From Pseudomonadota bacterium (lineage in GTDB: Bacteria > Pseudomonadota > Gammaproteobacteria > Ga0077536), in the NCBI GenBank assembly GCA_031418675.1, contig JANOXY010000744.1:1-35361 (forward strand): 35,361 nt of DNA, given 5' to 3'. Shown here piece after piece: positions 5,215-9,504 of the stretch (positions within the stretch are counted from its first letter, which is position 1; every line of letters begins with the position of its first letter). The notes below the pieces were generated by a model. It did no database searches and had not been told where the DNA came from. It was given only the letters and a program-made list of their open reading frames with translations. Both the position numbers and the translations under genes were made by a program.

Positions 5215-6078
5215 ATGGCCCATCACACTGCATTTCAATCTGGCAAAGTTGCCGTCATTACCGGCGCGGCCGACGGCATTGGCCGCGCAGCGGCCCAAGC
5301 TTATGCGCGTTTGGGCATGCACCTGCTGCTGGCCGATCGCGACGTCGAGCGCCTGACCGCTACCACCGAAGAAGTGCGCAACATCGTCGCCGCGCAGGAT
5401 GGCCGCGTGGTGTCTCAGGTGATCGATGTTGCACAATTCGAGCAGGTGGTGGCGCTGAAAGAGCGCGCCTACGCAGAATTCTCGCGGGTCGATGTGTTGA
5501 TGAACAACGCCGGCACCAGTCAGCCCAGCGGCGCGTGGTCGGCGCTGCCGGCCTGGCAGCACATCTTAAGCGTCAATCTCTGGGGCATCGTGCACGGTGT
5601 GCAGGCCTTTACTGAGGCCATGATCGCCCAGGGCAGCCCGGCCTTGATCATCAACACCGGCTCCAAACAAGGCATCACCAATCCGCCCGGCAATCCCGCC
5701 TACAACGTCAGTAAAGCCGGAGTGAAGTCCTTAACCGAATCCCTGCAACACGAGTTGCGCAACACCAGCGGCTGCCAGGTGAGCGCCCATCTGCTGGTGC
5801 CGGGCTTCACCTATACCGGCTTGACCCATATCGGCGCGCCGCGGGTCCGCGCTACGTCTAAGCCCGACGGTGCGTGGCTGCCGGAGCAGGTTATCGATTA
5901 CATGCTGGCTGCGATTGCACGCGGCAGTTTTTACATCATCTGTCCGGACAACGAAGTAAGCAGCGCCGACGATGCCAAGCGCATGGTGTGGGCGGCATAT
6001 GACATGGCCGACGATCGTGCGCCGCTGTCACGCTGGCAGGGTGATTACCAGGACGCGTTCAAGAACTTCAAAGTGTAA
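5215..6078 (+). CDS. Short-chain dehydrogenase/reductase (SDR) family oxidoreductase
   Basis: TGxxxGIG cofactor motif (VAVITGAADGIGRAAA), NNAG, and the catalytic YxxxK (YNVSKAG). A GAGGAG Shine-Dalgarno lies 7 nt upstream of the ATG. Confidence 0.85.
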   Translation: MAHHTAFQSGKVAVITGAADGIGRAAAQAYARLGMHLLLADRDVERLTATTEEVRNIVAAQDGRVVSQVIDVAQFEQVVALKERAYAEFSRVDVLMNNAGTSQPSGAWSALPAWQHILSVNLWGIVHGVQAFTEAMIAQGSPALIINTGSKQGITNPPGNPAYNVSKAGVKSLTESLQHELRNTSGCQVSAHLLVPGFTYTGLTHIGAPRVRATSKPDGAWLPEQVIDYMLAAIARGSFYIICPDNEVSSADDAKRMVWAAYDMADDRAPLSRWQGDYQDAFKNFKV

Positions 6079-6094: not shown

Positions 6095-6120
6095 GCTGCG
6101 CTGCGCGACTGCAGCGCAGC
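6095..6120. terminator. GC-rich hairpin between convergent genes (candidate bidirectional terminator)
   Basis: GCTGCGCTGC-gcgact-GCAGCGCAGC forms a perfect 10-bp stem. It lies 17 nt after the SDR stop and 14 nt after the CMD-gene stop. There is no clear U-tract. Confidence 0.4.
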
Positions 6121-6134
6121 GACAGCTCGGATGC

Positions 6135-6458
6135 TCAGCAACAAGACTTGGTCGTCGGCTGTGTGCCCACGGGCGGACAGCAAGCCGTTGCTTGTGCCAC
6201 CGCTTGCACTTCATCGGGACCACAGCAGGGAGCGTCGGCAACGATGCCGGTCAGCGCCGCCGTCGCGGCCGCCAATACCTTGTCCGCAGGCACGCGCTTG
6301 ATTTTGTCGGCCAGTTGGATGGCTTCGCTAATTTCGGCATCGCTCAAACCAGCCTTGCGTGCTTCGGGCACGTGGTAGTCGATACAGGGAATGCAATTGG
6401 CGGCGAGGGCCGCGCCGAGGGCAACGAGTTCGCGGTCACGATGGCTGAGGGTCGTCAT
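6135..6458 (-). CDS. Small carboxymuconolactone-decarboxylase (CMD/AhpD-like) family protein with a Cys-Cys-rich C-terminal tail
   Basis: Minimal CMD fold signature: LSHRDRELVALGAALAANCIPCIDYH (CxxC) ..GLSDAEISEAIQLA. The tail is ADAPCCGPDEVQAVAQATACCPPVGTQPTTKSCC. An AAGGAA Shine-Dalgarno is present. It starts 50 nt downstream of the preceding ORF on the same strand. Confidence 0.75.
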   Translation of the reverse strand: MTTLSHRDRELVALGAALAANCIPCIDYHVPEARKAGLSDAEISEAIQLADKIKRVPADKVLAAATAALTGIVADAPCCGPDEVQAVAQATACCPPVGTQPTTKSCC

Positions 6459-6508
6459 GGTGTATTCCTTGAGTGCTTGTGTGGATTGTCTGATTCAGGT
6501 TCAGGTGT

Positions 6509-8392
6509 TCAGCCGCAGCAGCTGCGTGCGGGTGTCACTGCGGGGATGGCTGGCACTGGTTTTGATATTCCGGCACAGCAGCTCGCGTCGACAGCCGGTG
6601 TCGAGAAGTTTGTGTTTGGCGCATTGACTGCCACGGGCCCACAGCATGGAGCTGGGGCCTGATCTTTAACGGTGGTGGCTTGTGTCACATTGCAGACGCC
6701 GGTTTCAGGTAACTGTAGATCAACACGATCAGCGGCCGCAAAATCACCCGCAATGGCCGCCACCACCGAGCGTACCTGCTCAAAGCCGGTCATCATGAGA
6801 AAGGTGGGCGCGCGCCCATAGCTCTTTACACCGACGGTGAAAAAGCCGGGCTCAGGATGGGACAACTCACGGTGACCATGGGGGCGTACGCTGCCGCAGC
6901 TATGCAGATTGGGATCAATCAAGGGTCCTAGTGCAAGGGTGGATTCAATCGCCGGGTCGAGCGATAGACGCAGTTCGCTGGTCATCTCCAGTGCAGGTCG
7001 CTGGCCGGTGGCGCAGACGATCTGATCAATACCCGACAAATGCACGACCTGTTGATTGGCAGCCAAACCCGTCACACGCAGTCCAGCCTCCGTGCGGGTT
7101 ATCTCAGTGATGTGCAGGCCACTGAAAAATTCCAGCTGACCGGCGTCACGCAGGGTTTTCAGCGCCGTGCCCAACTGACCACGGGCGGGCAGCGCGTCGG
7201 CGTCACCGCCGCCAAACACGCGGATTGGGTTAAGGTTGCGTACGGCCCATACCAGTTGTGTGCCCGCTGCGCTGCCCGCCAGCTCGGCCAATGCCAGCAG
7301 CGTGTTGGCCGCCGAATGACCGGCACCCACCACCAGGGTACGTTTGCCCGCATAGCGCGCGCGCTCTAGACCAAGTACGTCGGGAATACCGTAGAAGATT
7401 GTTTCGCGGTGCTCACGTTCGCCCAGGGCCGGTAAGCCGCTCGCACCAAGCGGATTGGGCGTGGCCCAGGTACCGCTGGCATCGATCACGGCACGTGCCC
7501 GATGTTCGCTGACCACACCGTCGCGCACGACTCGCAGTACAAACGGGGCCGCTTCGCGCGCCGCAGATTTGACCTTGTCGAAACCCTCGCGGGTGACGGC
7601 GAGCACCGCGGTATTCAGATGCAGCGCGGCGGCGACACTCGGTAATCGCGCGAAGGGTTCGAGCGCGCGGCTTACGACTTCGCCAGCCAGCGGCAATTTT
7701 TCACCCCCCGGTGCTTGCCAGCCGCTCGTCGAGAGCATGGCGGCCATGGTGTCATCGACGTTGTAACGCCAGGGTGAAAACAGACGCACGTGAGCGTAGT
7801 CGAGCAGATTCGCGCCGACACGTGCGCCGGCTTCAAAGATCAGCGGCGTGATACCGCGGGCAAGAAGATGTGCGGCGGCGGCCAGGCCGACCGGCCCAGC
7901 ACCAATGACGGCGACCGGTAAATCGTTCTGCATGGGCCGCGCCTCACGCAAAATCAGCATCATCAGCGTGGCGGAGGCTGGACACGCGCCCTGGAATTCG
8001 GCCGAGCCAGACAAAGCCAGCGGCGCCTGAGCGCGTGGCTCACGGATGAAGCCAAAGCGCGCAAAATAATCCTCAGCGGTTGCGGTCAGGAGATAGAGCC
8101 GCGCGATGTCCCGTCGTTGTGCTTCGTGCAGCAGCTGCTCCAATAACCGACGACCAATTCCCTGGCGCTGGAGCGCTGGACGCACCGCAACTGAGCGCAA
8201 CAAGGCAACATCGCCGCTGATCTCGGCGCCGGCGCAGGCGACAATTTCGCCACCCATCACCGCCACCATGAACGTGTGCAGATGATCACGCGCGCCATCG
8301 CGCGGCAAGCCATTGGCGAGCAGCAATGCCTCGATGGCAGGCCAGTCCGCGTTGTTGGCGGGTCGCAATGCAAGAGCAATATCCGTTGACAT
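6509..8392 (-). CDS. Fusion protein: N-terminal ArsN2-like GNAT N-acetyltransferase, an FAD/NAD(P)-binding flavoprotein (ArsO/CzcO-like class), and a Cys-Cys-rich tail
   Basis: Residues ~1-150 are GNAT (GDVALLRSVAVRPALQRQGIGRRLL, ..LYLLTATAEDYFARFGF, ..AEFQGACPASATLM), resembling my recollection of ArsN2. A dinucleotide fold follows (VAVIGAGPVGLAAAAHL), then HVRLFSP and a second GxGxxA (LVVGAGHSAANT). The protein ends PETGVCN..APAPCCGP..DASCCAG..ARSCCG. An AGGAG Shine-Dalgarno lies 8 nt upstream. Confidence 0.8.
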   Translation of the reverse strand: MSTDIALALRPANNADWPAIEALLLANGLPRDGARDHLHTFMVAVMGGEIVACAGAEISGDVALLRSVAVRPALQRQGIGRRLLEQLLHEAQRRDIARLYLLTATAEDYFARFGFIREPRAQAPLALSGSAEFQGACPASATLMMLILREARPMQNDLPVAVIGAGPVGLAAAAHLLARGITPLIFEAGARVGANLLDYAHVRLFSPWRYNVDDTMAAMLSTSGWQAPGGEKLPLAGEVVSRALEPFARLPSVAAALHLNTAVLAVTREGFDKVKSAAREAAPFVLRVVRDGVVSEHRARAVIDASGTWATPNPLGASGLPALGEREHRETIFYGIPDVLGLERARYAGKRTLVVGAGHSAANTLLALAELAGSAAGTQLVWAVRNLNPIRVFGGGDADALPARGQLGTALKTLRDAGQLEFFSGLHITEITRTEAGLRVTGLAANQQVVHLSGIDQIVCATGQRPALEMTSELRLSLDPAIESTLALGPLIDPNLHSCGSVRPHGHRELSHPEPGFFTVGVKSYGRAPTFLMMTGFEQVRSVVAAIAGDFAAADRVDLQLPETGVCNVTQATTVKDQAPAPCCGPVAVNAPNTNFSTPAVDASCCAGISKPVPAIPAVTPARSCCG

Positions 8393-8460: not shown

Positions 8461-8814
8461 TCAGCGCGCGCGTTTAGCCTTGCGCGGTGCCGGTACCTCG
8501 CAACACACAGTGGGTGCACATTGTTCGCGGCTACCCCCACAACACTCCTCCGTCAGATAGGCGATGATCTCCAGCATCACCGGCAGATTGGCGCGATAAC
8601 GTTGGTATCTGCCTTCCGGTGTCACGCTCACCAAACCGGCCTGGCTGAGTGCTTTTAAGTGGAAGGAGAGATTGGTGGGTGCAATGTCCAACGTGGTGGC
8701 CACTTCGCCGGCGACCATACCGCCCATGACGTTTTTCACCAGCAGCCGGAATACGTCCAAGCGCACGCCTGAGGACAGACATTCGAAAATTTGCGTTGCG
8801 GTTTTTTTATCCAT
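8461..8814 (-). CDS. arsR: ArsR/SmtB-family metalloregulator with an AfArsR-type C-terminal As(III) site
   Basis: The winged-helix region (VRLDVFRLLV..GEVATTLDIAPTNLSFHLKALSQAGLVSV..EGRYQRYRA) has no CVC site in helix 3. The C-terminus IAYLTEECCGGSREQCAPTVCC resembles the Acidithiobacillus ferrooxidans ArsR motif YLTENCCHGTRDC. I prefer the ATG at 8814 (MDKK..); the longest ORF starts at a TTG at 8829. Confidence 0.85.
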   Translation of the reverse strand: MDKKTATQIFECLSSGVRLDVFRLLVKNVMGGMVAGEVATTLDIAPTNLSFHLKALSQAGLVSVTPEGRYQRYRANLPVMLEIIAYLTEECCGGSREQCAPTVCCEVPAPRKAKRAR

Positions 8815-8820
8815 GATTTG

Positions 8821-8849
8821 ACTATACAACTATTGTTGAAACGATCAAC
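8821..8849 (-). promoter_or_regulatory. Candidate sigma70 promoter of arsR with an overlapping inverted repeat (possible ArsR operator)
   Basis: The minus strand reads TTGATC (8848..8843), a 16-nt spacer, TATAGT (8826..8821), 6 nt, then the ATG at 8814. The inverted repeat GTTGA-aacga-TCAAC (8835..8849) overlaps the -35 box and the spacer. This is pattern matching only. Confidence 0.35.
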
Positions 8850-8988
8850 TGTTTTTTTCAGCACCTGCTGCCGTTGCACGCCAGCTCCTCGCGCCGCAAC
8901 GCCAGCGCGCAACCTGGGTGTCACATTGGGTCCTTAACCTGCCGCATTCGTGAGGCGAAATGGCAGGGGAGAAGACCAGGAATTCATC

Positions 8989-9504
8989 ATGGACAAATAC
9001 GCGCCCGACCCGCAGCCCACCTACCACGTCCTGTTTCTCTGCACAGGAAACTCAGCGCGCTCAATCATCGCCGAGGCCTTGATGAATCACCTGGGCCGTG
9101 GCCGCTGCCGTGCTTACTCCGCCGGCAGTCATCCCACTGGCAAGGTCAATCCTTTGGCACTGGAGATGATCGAGGATTTATCCCCCTACCTCTCAAGCCC
9201 GCGCAGTAAACGTTGGGAGGAATTTGCGCTGCCCGGCGCGCCTACGCTCGATTTTGTTTTTACGGTCTGTGACAGCGCCGCCGGAGAAGTTTGCCCGCAG
9301 TGGCCGGGGCAACCCATGACCGCTCACTGGGGCATAGACGATCCGGCGGTGATGGTCGGTAGCGACGCGCAAAAGCGGCGTGCGTTTGAGCAGGCAACCT
9401 TGCAGTTAAAACGACGCATCGAATTGTTCTTGAGTTTGCCGCTGGAGGCGCTGGACACACTCGCCTTGCAGCACCGTCTCGACGACATCGGCCGCAGGGT
9501 ATGA
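8989..9504 (+). CDS. arsC: Arsenate reductase, LMW-PTPase / thioredoxin-coupled type
   Basis: P-loop VLFLCTGNSARSIIAE, plus a downstream Cys pair (TVCDSAAGEVCP) as in Trx-coupled ArsC. I prefer the ATG at 8989 (MDKYAPD..); the longest ORF starts at a GTG at 8950. The gene is divergent from arsR. Confidence 0.85.
   Translation: MDKYAPDPQPTYHVLFLCTGNSARSIIAEALMNHLGRGRCRAYSAGSHPTGKVNPLALEMIEDLSPYLSSPRSKRWEEFALPGAPTLDFVFTVCDSAAGEVCPQWPGQPMTAHWGIDDPAVMVGSDAQKRRAFEQATLQLKRRIELFLSLPLEALDTLALQHRLDDIGRRV

Follow-up and report, generated by a model that had tools for sequence, protein, structure and literature searches.

Analysis of a 35,361-nucleotide stretch of the genome of a Pseudomonadota bacterium (contig JANOXY010000744.1 of assembly GCA_031418675.1, Gammaproteobacteria; the whole stretch is referred to below as the window) revealed two consecutive genes whose products, a fusion of an ArsN2 N-acetyltransferase with an ArsV-like flavoprotein and a small protein of the AhpD/CMD family, both end in a tail carrying three vicinal cysteine pairs (CC). 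CC-ended tails are a general trait of proteins encoded in arsenic gene clusters and are not private to this fusion/CMD pair, and they are read here, tentatively, as flexible dithiol arms that would bind trivalent arsenic or antimony species and present them to conserved cysteines of the enzymes concerned.

The Operon and Its Two Enzymes

The two open reading frames (ORFs) lie head to tail on the minus strand, the fusion gene at 6509..8392 (627 amino acids) being followed by the CMD gene at 6135..6458 (107 amino acids), with 50 nucleotides between the fusion stop codon and the CMD start and an AAGGA ribosome-binding site 8 nucleotides before that start. The genes form an ArsR-headed operon (arsR, arsN2V, cmd) opposite a divergent arsC. 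The arsenic-operon setting supposed in an initial annotation of the window is thus borne out by the ArsR gene, the divergent LMWP-type ArsC, the ArsN2 domain scoring above its NCBIfam cut-off and the ArsV-like flavoprotein. The gene order is identical in an 86%-identical metagenome relative (collected locus L092). The features of the operon are as follows.

6509..8392, minus strand: ArsN2-ArsV-like fusion gene with a Cys-pair tail (NF040501 and Pyr_redox_3 matches)
7946..8392, minus strand: ArsN2 N-acetyltransferase (GNAT) domain, residues 1 to about 149 (NF040501 profile match)
6692..7945, minus strand: ArsV-like flavoprotein domain, residues 150-567 (homology to the Ensifer adhaerens arsR-X-arsK gene product; fold search)
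6512..6691, minus strand: C-terminal tail of the fusion, residues 568-627, predicted to be disordered (AlphaFold2 pLDDT; Cys conservation)
6641..6646, 6575..6580 and 6515..6520, minus strand: CC codons of the fusion tail (ORF translation)
6524..6583, minus strand: 60-base-pair (bp) "linker+SCC" unit with AGCTGCTG repeats at its bounds (DNA alignment against L092)
6135..6458, minus strand: AhpD/CMD-family gene, 107 amino acids (PF02627 and TIGR00778 matches)
6138..6248, minus strand: C-terminal tail of the CMD protein, residues 71-107, predicted to be disordered (AlphaFold2 model)
6222..6227, 6177..6182 and 6138..6143, minus strand: CC codons of the CMD tail (ORF translation)
8461..8829, minus strand: ArsR/SmtB repressor gene, head of the operon (NF033788 and PF12840 matches)
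8950..9504, plus strand: divergent gene for a homologue of the LMWP-type (thioredoxin-coupled) arsenate reductase ArsC (PF01451; TIGR02691 below cut-off)

Regarding the fusion protein, residues 16-145 match positions 1-131 of the 133 positions of the ArsN2 profile NF040501 with 146.9 bits, against a cut-off of 125. The flavoprotein domain is of the two-Rossmann NAD(P)H type, its only Pfam matches being Pyr_redox_3, Pyr_redox_2 and NAD_binding_8. The NCBIfam scan gave weak YpdA matches for the flavoprotein and no match to an ArsV model; the flavin monooxygenase ArsO was rejected as a candidate (NF040505, 36 bits against an equivalog cut-off of 425), and a sequence search of the PDB found no close solved relative. 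More than 8000 homologues were found for the fusion (clusters, fused form), and the flavoprotein family comprises 3805 representatives at 50% clustering.

Relatives on two Ensifer adhaerens plasmids came up in a tblastn search of plasmids; on these the gene is flanked by arsR and an annotated arsK inside an arsenite-oxidase island. The window flavoprotein domain is 50% identical to this arsR-X-arsK product over 473 residues (E value 1e-151), and by this similarity it is likely a member of the ArsV family. ArsV is said to have been characterised from Ensifer adhaerens ST2 and Achromobacter As-55, and the enzyme was reportedly described by Zhang et al. (2022, Environ Microbiol 24:752). ArsV is reported as an NADPH-dependent flavin monooxygenase whose gene is often preceded by that of the repressor MarR_ars (bioRxiv 10.1101/2021.08.12.456183). 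The genomic context in the window is of the ArsV type, with the ArsR gene upstream of the fusion, and MarR genes precede the fusion homologues of Piscinibacter, Roseateles and two proteobacterial metagenome-assembled genomes (MAGs), in the loci L001, L002, L005, and L006, their products bearing CC near the N-terminus and CC...CC near the C-terminus. L001 and L007-L009 have an MFS gene downstream of the flavoprotein, and stand-alone versions of the flavoprotein (Bosea, a Beijerinckiaceae MAG, and Enterovirga) are found in ACR3-arsR-X-MFS arrays.

The AlphaFold2 model of the fusion has a mean confidence score (pLDDT) of 76.7. In an alignment that includes relatives of 43-58% identity, the invariant cysteines of the protein body are C499, in the HSCG loop of IDPNLHSCG, and C567, in LPETGVC. 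Conservation in the flavoprotein is highest in the motif IDPNLHSCGxVxPHGHxELxHPEPG (residues ~476-504; window 6692..7000), where H497, C499, and H505 are invariant. This motif has a pLDDT <50 in the model, and its folding may, to judge from the model, depend on a cofactor, a partner subunit or a metalloid.

Membership of the CMD protein in the AhpD/CMD family is indicated by PF02627 (51.3 bits against 23) and TIGR00778 (40.3 bits against 27.8), this domain-level model alone among those of NCBIfam exceeding its cut-off. The AhpD signature is present as E10-x11-C22-x2-C25-x3-H29, all four residues being invariant in 46 aligned relatives, with the spacing of the active site of Mycobacterium tuberculosis AhpD (E118/C130/C133/H137). 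The protein was modelled as four helices (residues 6-70) followed by the tail, and small hexameric CMD proteins of 96-112 amino acids are contained in the PDB.

Conservation, Modularity and Distribution of the Tails

The fusion protein ends in ...VKDQAPAPCCGPVAVNAPNTNFSTPAVDASCCAGISKPVPAIPAVTPARSCCG (in a second rendering ...APAPCCGPVAVNAPNTNFSTPAVDASCCAGISKPVPAIPAVTPARSCCG), with pairs at C583/584, C605/606, and C625/626, and the CMD protein in ...ADAPCCGPDEVQAVAQATACCPPVGTQPTTKSCC, with pairs at C78/79, C93/94, and C106/107. At least three CC pairs arose by chance in 57 of 200000 shuffles of the fusion protein's own residues and in 494 of 200000 shuffles of those of the CMD protein. The hexamer APCCGP noted at the start of both tails and the position of the last pair at or next to the C-terminus were confirmed, the interval 6135-6690 spanning the CMD gene and the fusion tail. 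Three pairs per tail, also claimed in the initial annotation, are present in both window proteins but do not hold as a conserved trait, since homologous tails carry 1-5 pairs in the fusion family (modal tail Cys count 6, n = 120) and 0-3 in the CMD family (modal count 3, as C...CC, n = 117). The C-terminus of the window ArsR is Cys-clustered as well, reading ...EECCGGSREQCAPTVCCEV... (CC-x6-C-x5-CC, with two vicinal pairs), and CC motifs near the C-terminus are therefore found in three consecutive gene products, ArsR, the fusion and the CMD protein.

The presence of the tails in orthologues, one of the tests proposed with that annotation, was supported in both families and speaks for the tails more strongly than the shuffles do. 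A CC within the last five residues was found in 115/120 of the best fusion homologues (62-99% identity), usually as RCCG, and in 102/117 CMD homologues with a recognisable anchor, usually as KSCC or CCG. In the alignment reaching down to 43-58% identity, C583/584 and C625/626 reach a conservation of at least 90%, the middle pair falling short of this. The distance from C567 to the first CC is 14-15 residues in 95 of 159 relatives, and the last CC stands at the C-terminus or one residue short of it in 136 of the 159 sequences. The typical layout in the fusion family is CCG, then CGxxxCG, then CCG. Distant representatives of the flavoprotein often keep the CC end, and among divergent metagenome relatives of the CMD protein, with 67 distinct tails, 41 end in CC, 11 in CxC and 15 in neither. 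The proposed flexibility agrees with the very low AlphaFold2 confidence of both tails, which suggests disorder, and with their Ala/Gly/Pro/Ser-rich composition: block means of pLDDT lie at 31-36 in the fusion (residues 561-627, inside a segment, 558-627, that stays below 50) and at about 45-53 in the CMD protein beyond residue 70.

The metagenome relative L092 lacks exactly 60 bp of the fusion tail, corresponding to one linker plus SCC (window 6524..6583; L092:6600-6900), and the position of this in-frame indel between AGCTGCTG direct repeats suggests slippage or recombination between Cys-pair codons. The indel of one unit, beside a CMD tail that keeps three pairs, indicates that whole units are gained and lost as the tails evolve. 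With two pairs on the fusion and three on the CMD protein of this relative, the co-variation of pair numbers that the initial annotation had put up for testing was rejected.

The idea of a shared tail module fared no better. The two window tails align with a Smith-Waterman score of 59; shuffles preserving the CC units average 41.3 ± 7.8, and 2.6% of them reach 59; between the families the mean tail scores are 34.2 for real and 31.0 for shuffled tails, three score units apart. Homology of the fusion and CMD tails is unproven at scores barely above those of CC-preserving shuffles; as far as their sequences can tell, the tails appear to be analogous and not demonstrably homologous, their likeness lying mostly in composition and CC units. 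Specific hand-off between the two proteins, proposed in the initial annotation, is likewise unsupported: the 31 CMD loci of at least 5 kb contain recognisable ars genes in 14 cases and an ArsV-like gene in only 2, and fusion homologues occur without a CMD gene, so that the pair is not obligate. Transfer between the two window proteins is possible, without specific support.

Natural triple fusions of ArsN2, flavoprotein and CMD were detected (P0130, 765 amino acids, and P0132, 731 amino acids), set in an ACR3-arsC / arsR-D-A cluster (L003:6001-8298). They retain the first CC of the flavoprotein tail, the former terminal pair having decayed into a linker, and their existence indicates that the flavoprotein and CMD can act in one pathway.

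Enrichment was counted as CC within the last six residues of 661 ORFs with intact C-termini from all collected loci. CC-ended proteins comprised 8/10 ArsV-like, 14/30 CMD, 3/4 ArsD, 1/1 MarR_ars, 2/14 ArsR, and 1/5 ArsC-like proteins, and only 4/569 other ORFs, so that the search for CC-ended proteins near ars genes suggested in the initial annotation yielded a strong enrichment on arsenic-cluster proteins. Two MAG loci encode four different CC-tailed proteins (MarR, the fusion, CMD, and ArsD), and the ending K-S-C-C recurs on CMD, ArsD, and MarR_ars and on free-standing mini-proteins. The CC-ended "ArsC-like" protein is an ArsC-ArsM fusion (NF008823, 364 bits; L083:1632-2993, plus strand) ending in ...STGACC, and one of the four "other" ORFs is an ArsM homologue (L047:4766-5845, minus strand) ending in ...GGACC; both genes adjoin CMD genes.

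Proposed Capture of Metalloids and Alternative Roles of the Tails

The reading favoured here, though held with reserve, is that the tails are flexible dithiol arms that bind trivalent arsenic and antimony species, with methylarsenite, aromatic arsenicals, Sb(III), and As(III) as putative ligands, and present them to conserved cysteines of the enzymes. In the flavoprotein, the first pair (~14-16 residues past Cys567) and the terminal pair would pass the metalloid to a site formed by Cys499 and Cys567, where flavin-dependent oxidation may follow; oxidation to the pentavalent state would free the metalloid from sulfur. The CMD tail would cooperate with the E-x11-CxxC-x3-H redox centre. Binding and delivery are inferred, and the oxidation step is borrowed from published work on ArsV.

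The tails are read as metalloid ligands and not as electron carriers mainly because the enrichment includes As(III)/Sb(III)-responsive regulators. Mutagenesis is reported to have shown that Cys36, Cys37, and Cys157 of MarR_ars are required for the response to As(III)/Sb(III) (bioRxiv 10.1101/2021.08.12.456183). Changes of pair number by gain and loss of units fit capture and avidity better than a precise catalytic relay, and the modal Cys counts of six and three, being multiples of the three-sulfur As(III) site, lend support to metalloid binding.

By analogy, the known kind to which the tails would belong is that of vicinal-cysteine metalloid sites, as in ArsD, ArsR, MarR_ars, and MerA. ArsD of R773 has vicinal pairs at Cys12-13, Cys112-113, and Cys119-120, binds As(III)/Sb(III) and hands As(III) to ArsA. 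The window proteins resemble it in bearing multiple vicinal pairs, some of them C-terminal, on the product of an ars operon, and related loci encode ArsD homologues with the endings ...KSCC or ...GSSCC; however, the window proteins are without the ArsD fold, and no arsA or efflux gene lies beside the operon in the window. Membership in ArsD was rejected, neither protein matching PF06953 while true ArsD genes are recognisable in related loci.

MerA is an NAD(P)H flavoenzyme in which a flexible C-terminal vicinal pair passes the thiophilic ion to inner active-site cysteines, and as a class-I disulfide reductase it has CxxxxC by the flavin together with a dimerisation domain. In the window, the flavoprotein is likewise an NAD(P)H flavoenzyme with a C-terminal vicinal pair, but it has neither the CxxxxC nor the dimerisation domain and carries several pairs to the one of MerA. 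It was rejected as a member of MerA or the class-I disulfide oxidoreductases, there being no match to the dimerisation domain and the invariant cysteines being only C499 and C567 plus the tail pairs, and the fold search pointing to YpdA, TrxR-like and class-B monooxygenase folds.

Acidithiobacillus-type ArsR has a CC...C site for As(III) sensing at its C-terminus. Like ArsR and MarR_ars, the tails combine a vicinal pair with one or more extra cysteines near the terminus and occur in the same gene clusters, and such sites are also carried by the window ArsR and the MarR proteins adjacent to fusion homologues; unlike those allosteric sensor sites on DNA-binding proteins, however, the window tails are on enzymes. 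The E. adhaerens arsR-X-arsK protein is similarly Cys-rich-tailed, whereas the window domain follows an N-terminal ArsN2 domain in the same chain, and its three-pair tail is of another subtype, which the E. adhaerens tail motif CCGGPA...ACC...GCGCG does not match. The CMD protein resembles the AhpD/CMD family in its PF02627 domain and signature within 107 amino acids, but differs from characterised AhpD in its Cys-pair tail and in the arsenic or SigZ-like sigma context. The HdrB-type CCG domain was also rejected as a candidate, PF02754 being absent from the Pfam matches of both proteins. Full-text searches of literature other than the original ArsV papers found nothing relevant on C-terminal cysteines of ArsV, on AhpD in ars operons or on CMD with ECF/anti-sigma proteins.

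Several observations weigh against the capture of metalloids by the tails. The fusion tail is docked nowhere by AlphaFold2, some lineages among the distant flavoproteins and some members of the CMD family are without a Cys tail, and the ArsV identity depends on 50% identity to a gene from a different strain of the same species as the described ArsV. Most linkages of the CMD family are to a SigZ-like sigma gene and not to ArsV, an ECF sigma gene (~187 amino acids) being the same-strand downstream neighbour of the CMD-CC gene in 26/33 cases (L013-L091). Furthermore, the best fold match of the flavoprotein is the bacillithiol disulfide reductase YpdA/Bdr (TM score ~0.8 on the target), the CCG at the end of the tail is similar to the GCCG/GCUG that is redox-active in large thioredoxin reductases, and the CMD protein possesses a complete redox CxxC site.

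These last three points also favour a redox relay, in which the terminal Cys-Cys(-Gly) would be a redox-active vicinal dithiol/disulfide and a YpdA/TrxR-like NADPH flavoprotein would reduce its own or the CMD tail; the AhpD-type CxxC would receive the electrons next, with a peroxide, an oxidised protein thiol or a pentavalent arsenical as the final acceptor. Large thioredoxin reductase is an NADPH flavoenzyme whose GCUG/GCCG redox centre sits on a flexible extension at the C-terminus, and the window flavoprotein is like it in having a penultimate vicinal Cys pair followed by Gly; it differs in fold class, in having multiple pairs and in being without an N-terminal CVNVGC-type redox disulfide. 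The near invariance of the terminal CCG, the match to TrxR-like enzymes in the fold search, the weak YpdA matches, the retention of the full AhpD signature in the CMD protein, the existence of NCBIfam models with an AhpD domain fused to ArsM (selenoprotein forms included) and the GNAT-flavoprotein-CMD triple fusion are all consistent with such a relay. Nevertheless, the flavoprotein has no CxxxxC/CxxC by the FAD motif, its sole invariant body cysteines being distant from each other in sequence; one pair would suffice, yet the tails have a variable one to five; and tails of the same type occur on DNA-binding regulators and ArsD, where electron relay would be senseless. ArsV, moreover, is reported to be a monooxygenase (bioRxiv 10.1101/2021.08.12.456183), and the fold matches after YpdA/Bdr were TrxR-like ferredoxin reductases (FNR) and class-B N-hydroxylating and flavin monooxygenases, the class-B monooxygenases scoring almost as well, so that the modelled fold would be compatible with a monooxygenase or a disulfide reductase. 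A redox relay is the main rival of the capture reading and less probable than it.

Alternatively, no active site would be fed at all, the tails serving in metallothionein-like sequestration or, in the CMD protein, as a thiol switch towards a partner regulator. The sigma linkage described above, with conserved cysteines in the aligned sigmas, the free-standing Cys-rich mini-proteins beside SigZ-family sigma genes and the variable copy number of the Cys pairs would suit such a sensor or buffer, which is nonetheless rather improbable here: no SigZ-like sigma gene was found in the window, where the CMD gene follows the flavoprotein gene behind arsR, the invariant catalytic residues of AhpD argue for enzymatic activity, and the first pair of the flavoprotein is constrained in its position beside an invariant cysteine. 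That the tails, which are compositionally simple, variable in length and missing from some family members, are functionless low-complexity extensions arisen by chance is very unlikely given their strong enrichment over background ORFs and the persistence of the terminal CC among the homologues counted above down to ~55-60% identity, and in many relatives of 40-50% identity.

What appears to be new is the form that a known kind of vicinal-cysteine site takes here: probably disordered C-terminal tails, able to grow unit by unit, on a flavoenzyme of the ArsN2-ArsV-like type and on an AhpD-like protein. ArsV-type enzymes detoxify methylarsenite, roxarsone-type drugs and antimonite, and the family is large. 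If the tails are indeed capture arms, they would explain how a flavin monooxygenase takes up thiol-bound metalloids at low concentration, would provide simple peptide tags for As/Sb binding or biosensing, and would extend the same logic to the AhpD-like arsenic-cluster protein, ArsM, and ArsD.

Mini-Proteins, Sigma Factors and Neighbouring Genes

A 32-amino-acid motif, CCGGPAkaDasACCxlDExkKAeGesGCGCg, is conserved in many ArsV-like tails (E. adhaerens, Bosea, and others). Its profile retrieves 246 free-standing proteins of ~55-75 amino acids in addition to matching the E. adhaerens and Bosea ArsV-like tails; as copies of this motif the window tails were rejected, the profile matching no window ORF at E<=1e-3 (hmmsearch). 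The mini-proteins have no Pfam domain on record, no NCBIfam family was found for the two scanned (P0430 and P0393), and many of those inspected end in KSSCC (pattern CCGG..D.ACC..DE.KKAEGESGCGC...KSSCC; P0390-P0509). Examples are encoded at L094:5001-5210, L096:4001-4192, and L098:4001-4222, and an ECF sigma gene lies nearby in 3/5 contexts, the one that was scanned being of the SigZ family.

In one operon (L098/L099:344-4222) genes for a SigZ sigma, PIG-L, an ArsV-like flavoprotein, MFS, and a Cys-rich mini-protein follow one another in this order. The sigma scores above the cut-off of TIGR02959 and has CC in the linker and after region 4, and the operon is possibly a regulon for the orphan SigZ family. 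The flavoprotein is 48% identical to the window domain and short-tailed, the tail module being encoded as a separate gene, which indicates that such tails can act as autonomous modules. Whether fused or separate, Cys-pair tails and mini-proteins might conceivably form one uncharacterised class of portable metalloid-carrier modules for ArsV-type flavoproteins and other arsenic enzymes, perhaps wired to SigZ-family sigmas whose own conserved cysteines could let them sense As/Sb directly, a proposal that we regard as doubtful. If it were true, it would provide the orphan SigZ family with a stimulus and a regulon, and arsenic research with a new type of chaperone. The mini-proteins and the SigZ-like linkage point to an unstudied thiol-based metalloid response and are more novel leads than the tails.

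The linkage of CMD-CC and sigma genes is exemplified at L014:6397-6960 and L018:829-1392. One CMD-linked sigma was scanned against NCBIfam, with SigZ as the best match, below its cut-off, and the aligned CMD-linked sigmas have common cysteines in the linker (DEMNxC) and at the C-terminus (CxFYRDxxxVxRCDRK). A gene for a DGC-domain protein (PF08859) is adjacent to the CMD gene on its upstream side in 9/45 loci (e.g., L021, L030, L034, L038, L043, L050, and L053).

Regarding the surroundings of the operon, no arsenite efflux gene was identified among ten neighbouring ORFs scanned (~2.9-23.6 kb), which encode SDR, thiolase, EthD, molybdoenzymes, and a two-partner-secretion transporter, and no near-identical DNA was found in plasmids. 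The gap that separates the CMD gene from the convergent SDR gene (5215..6078) contains a GC-rich palindrome at ~6096..6123 (CGCTGCGCTGC...GCAGCGCAGCG) which, though not reported by a simple terminator scan, is probably a bidirectional terminator.

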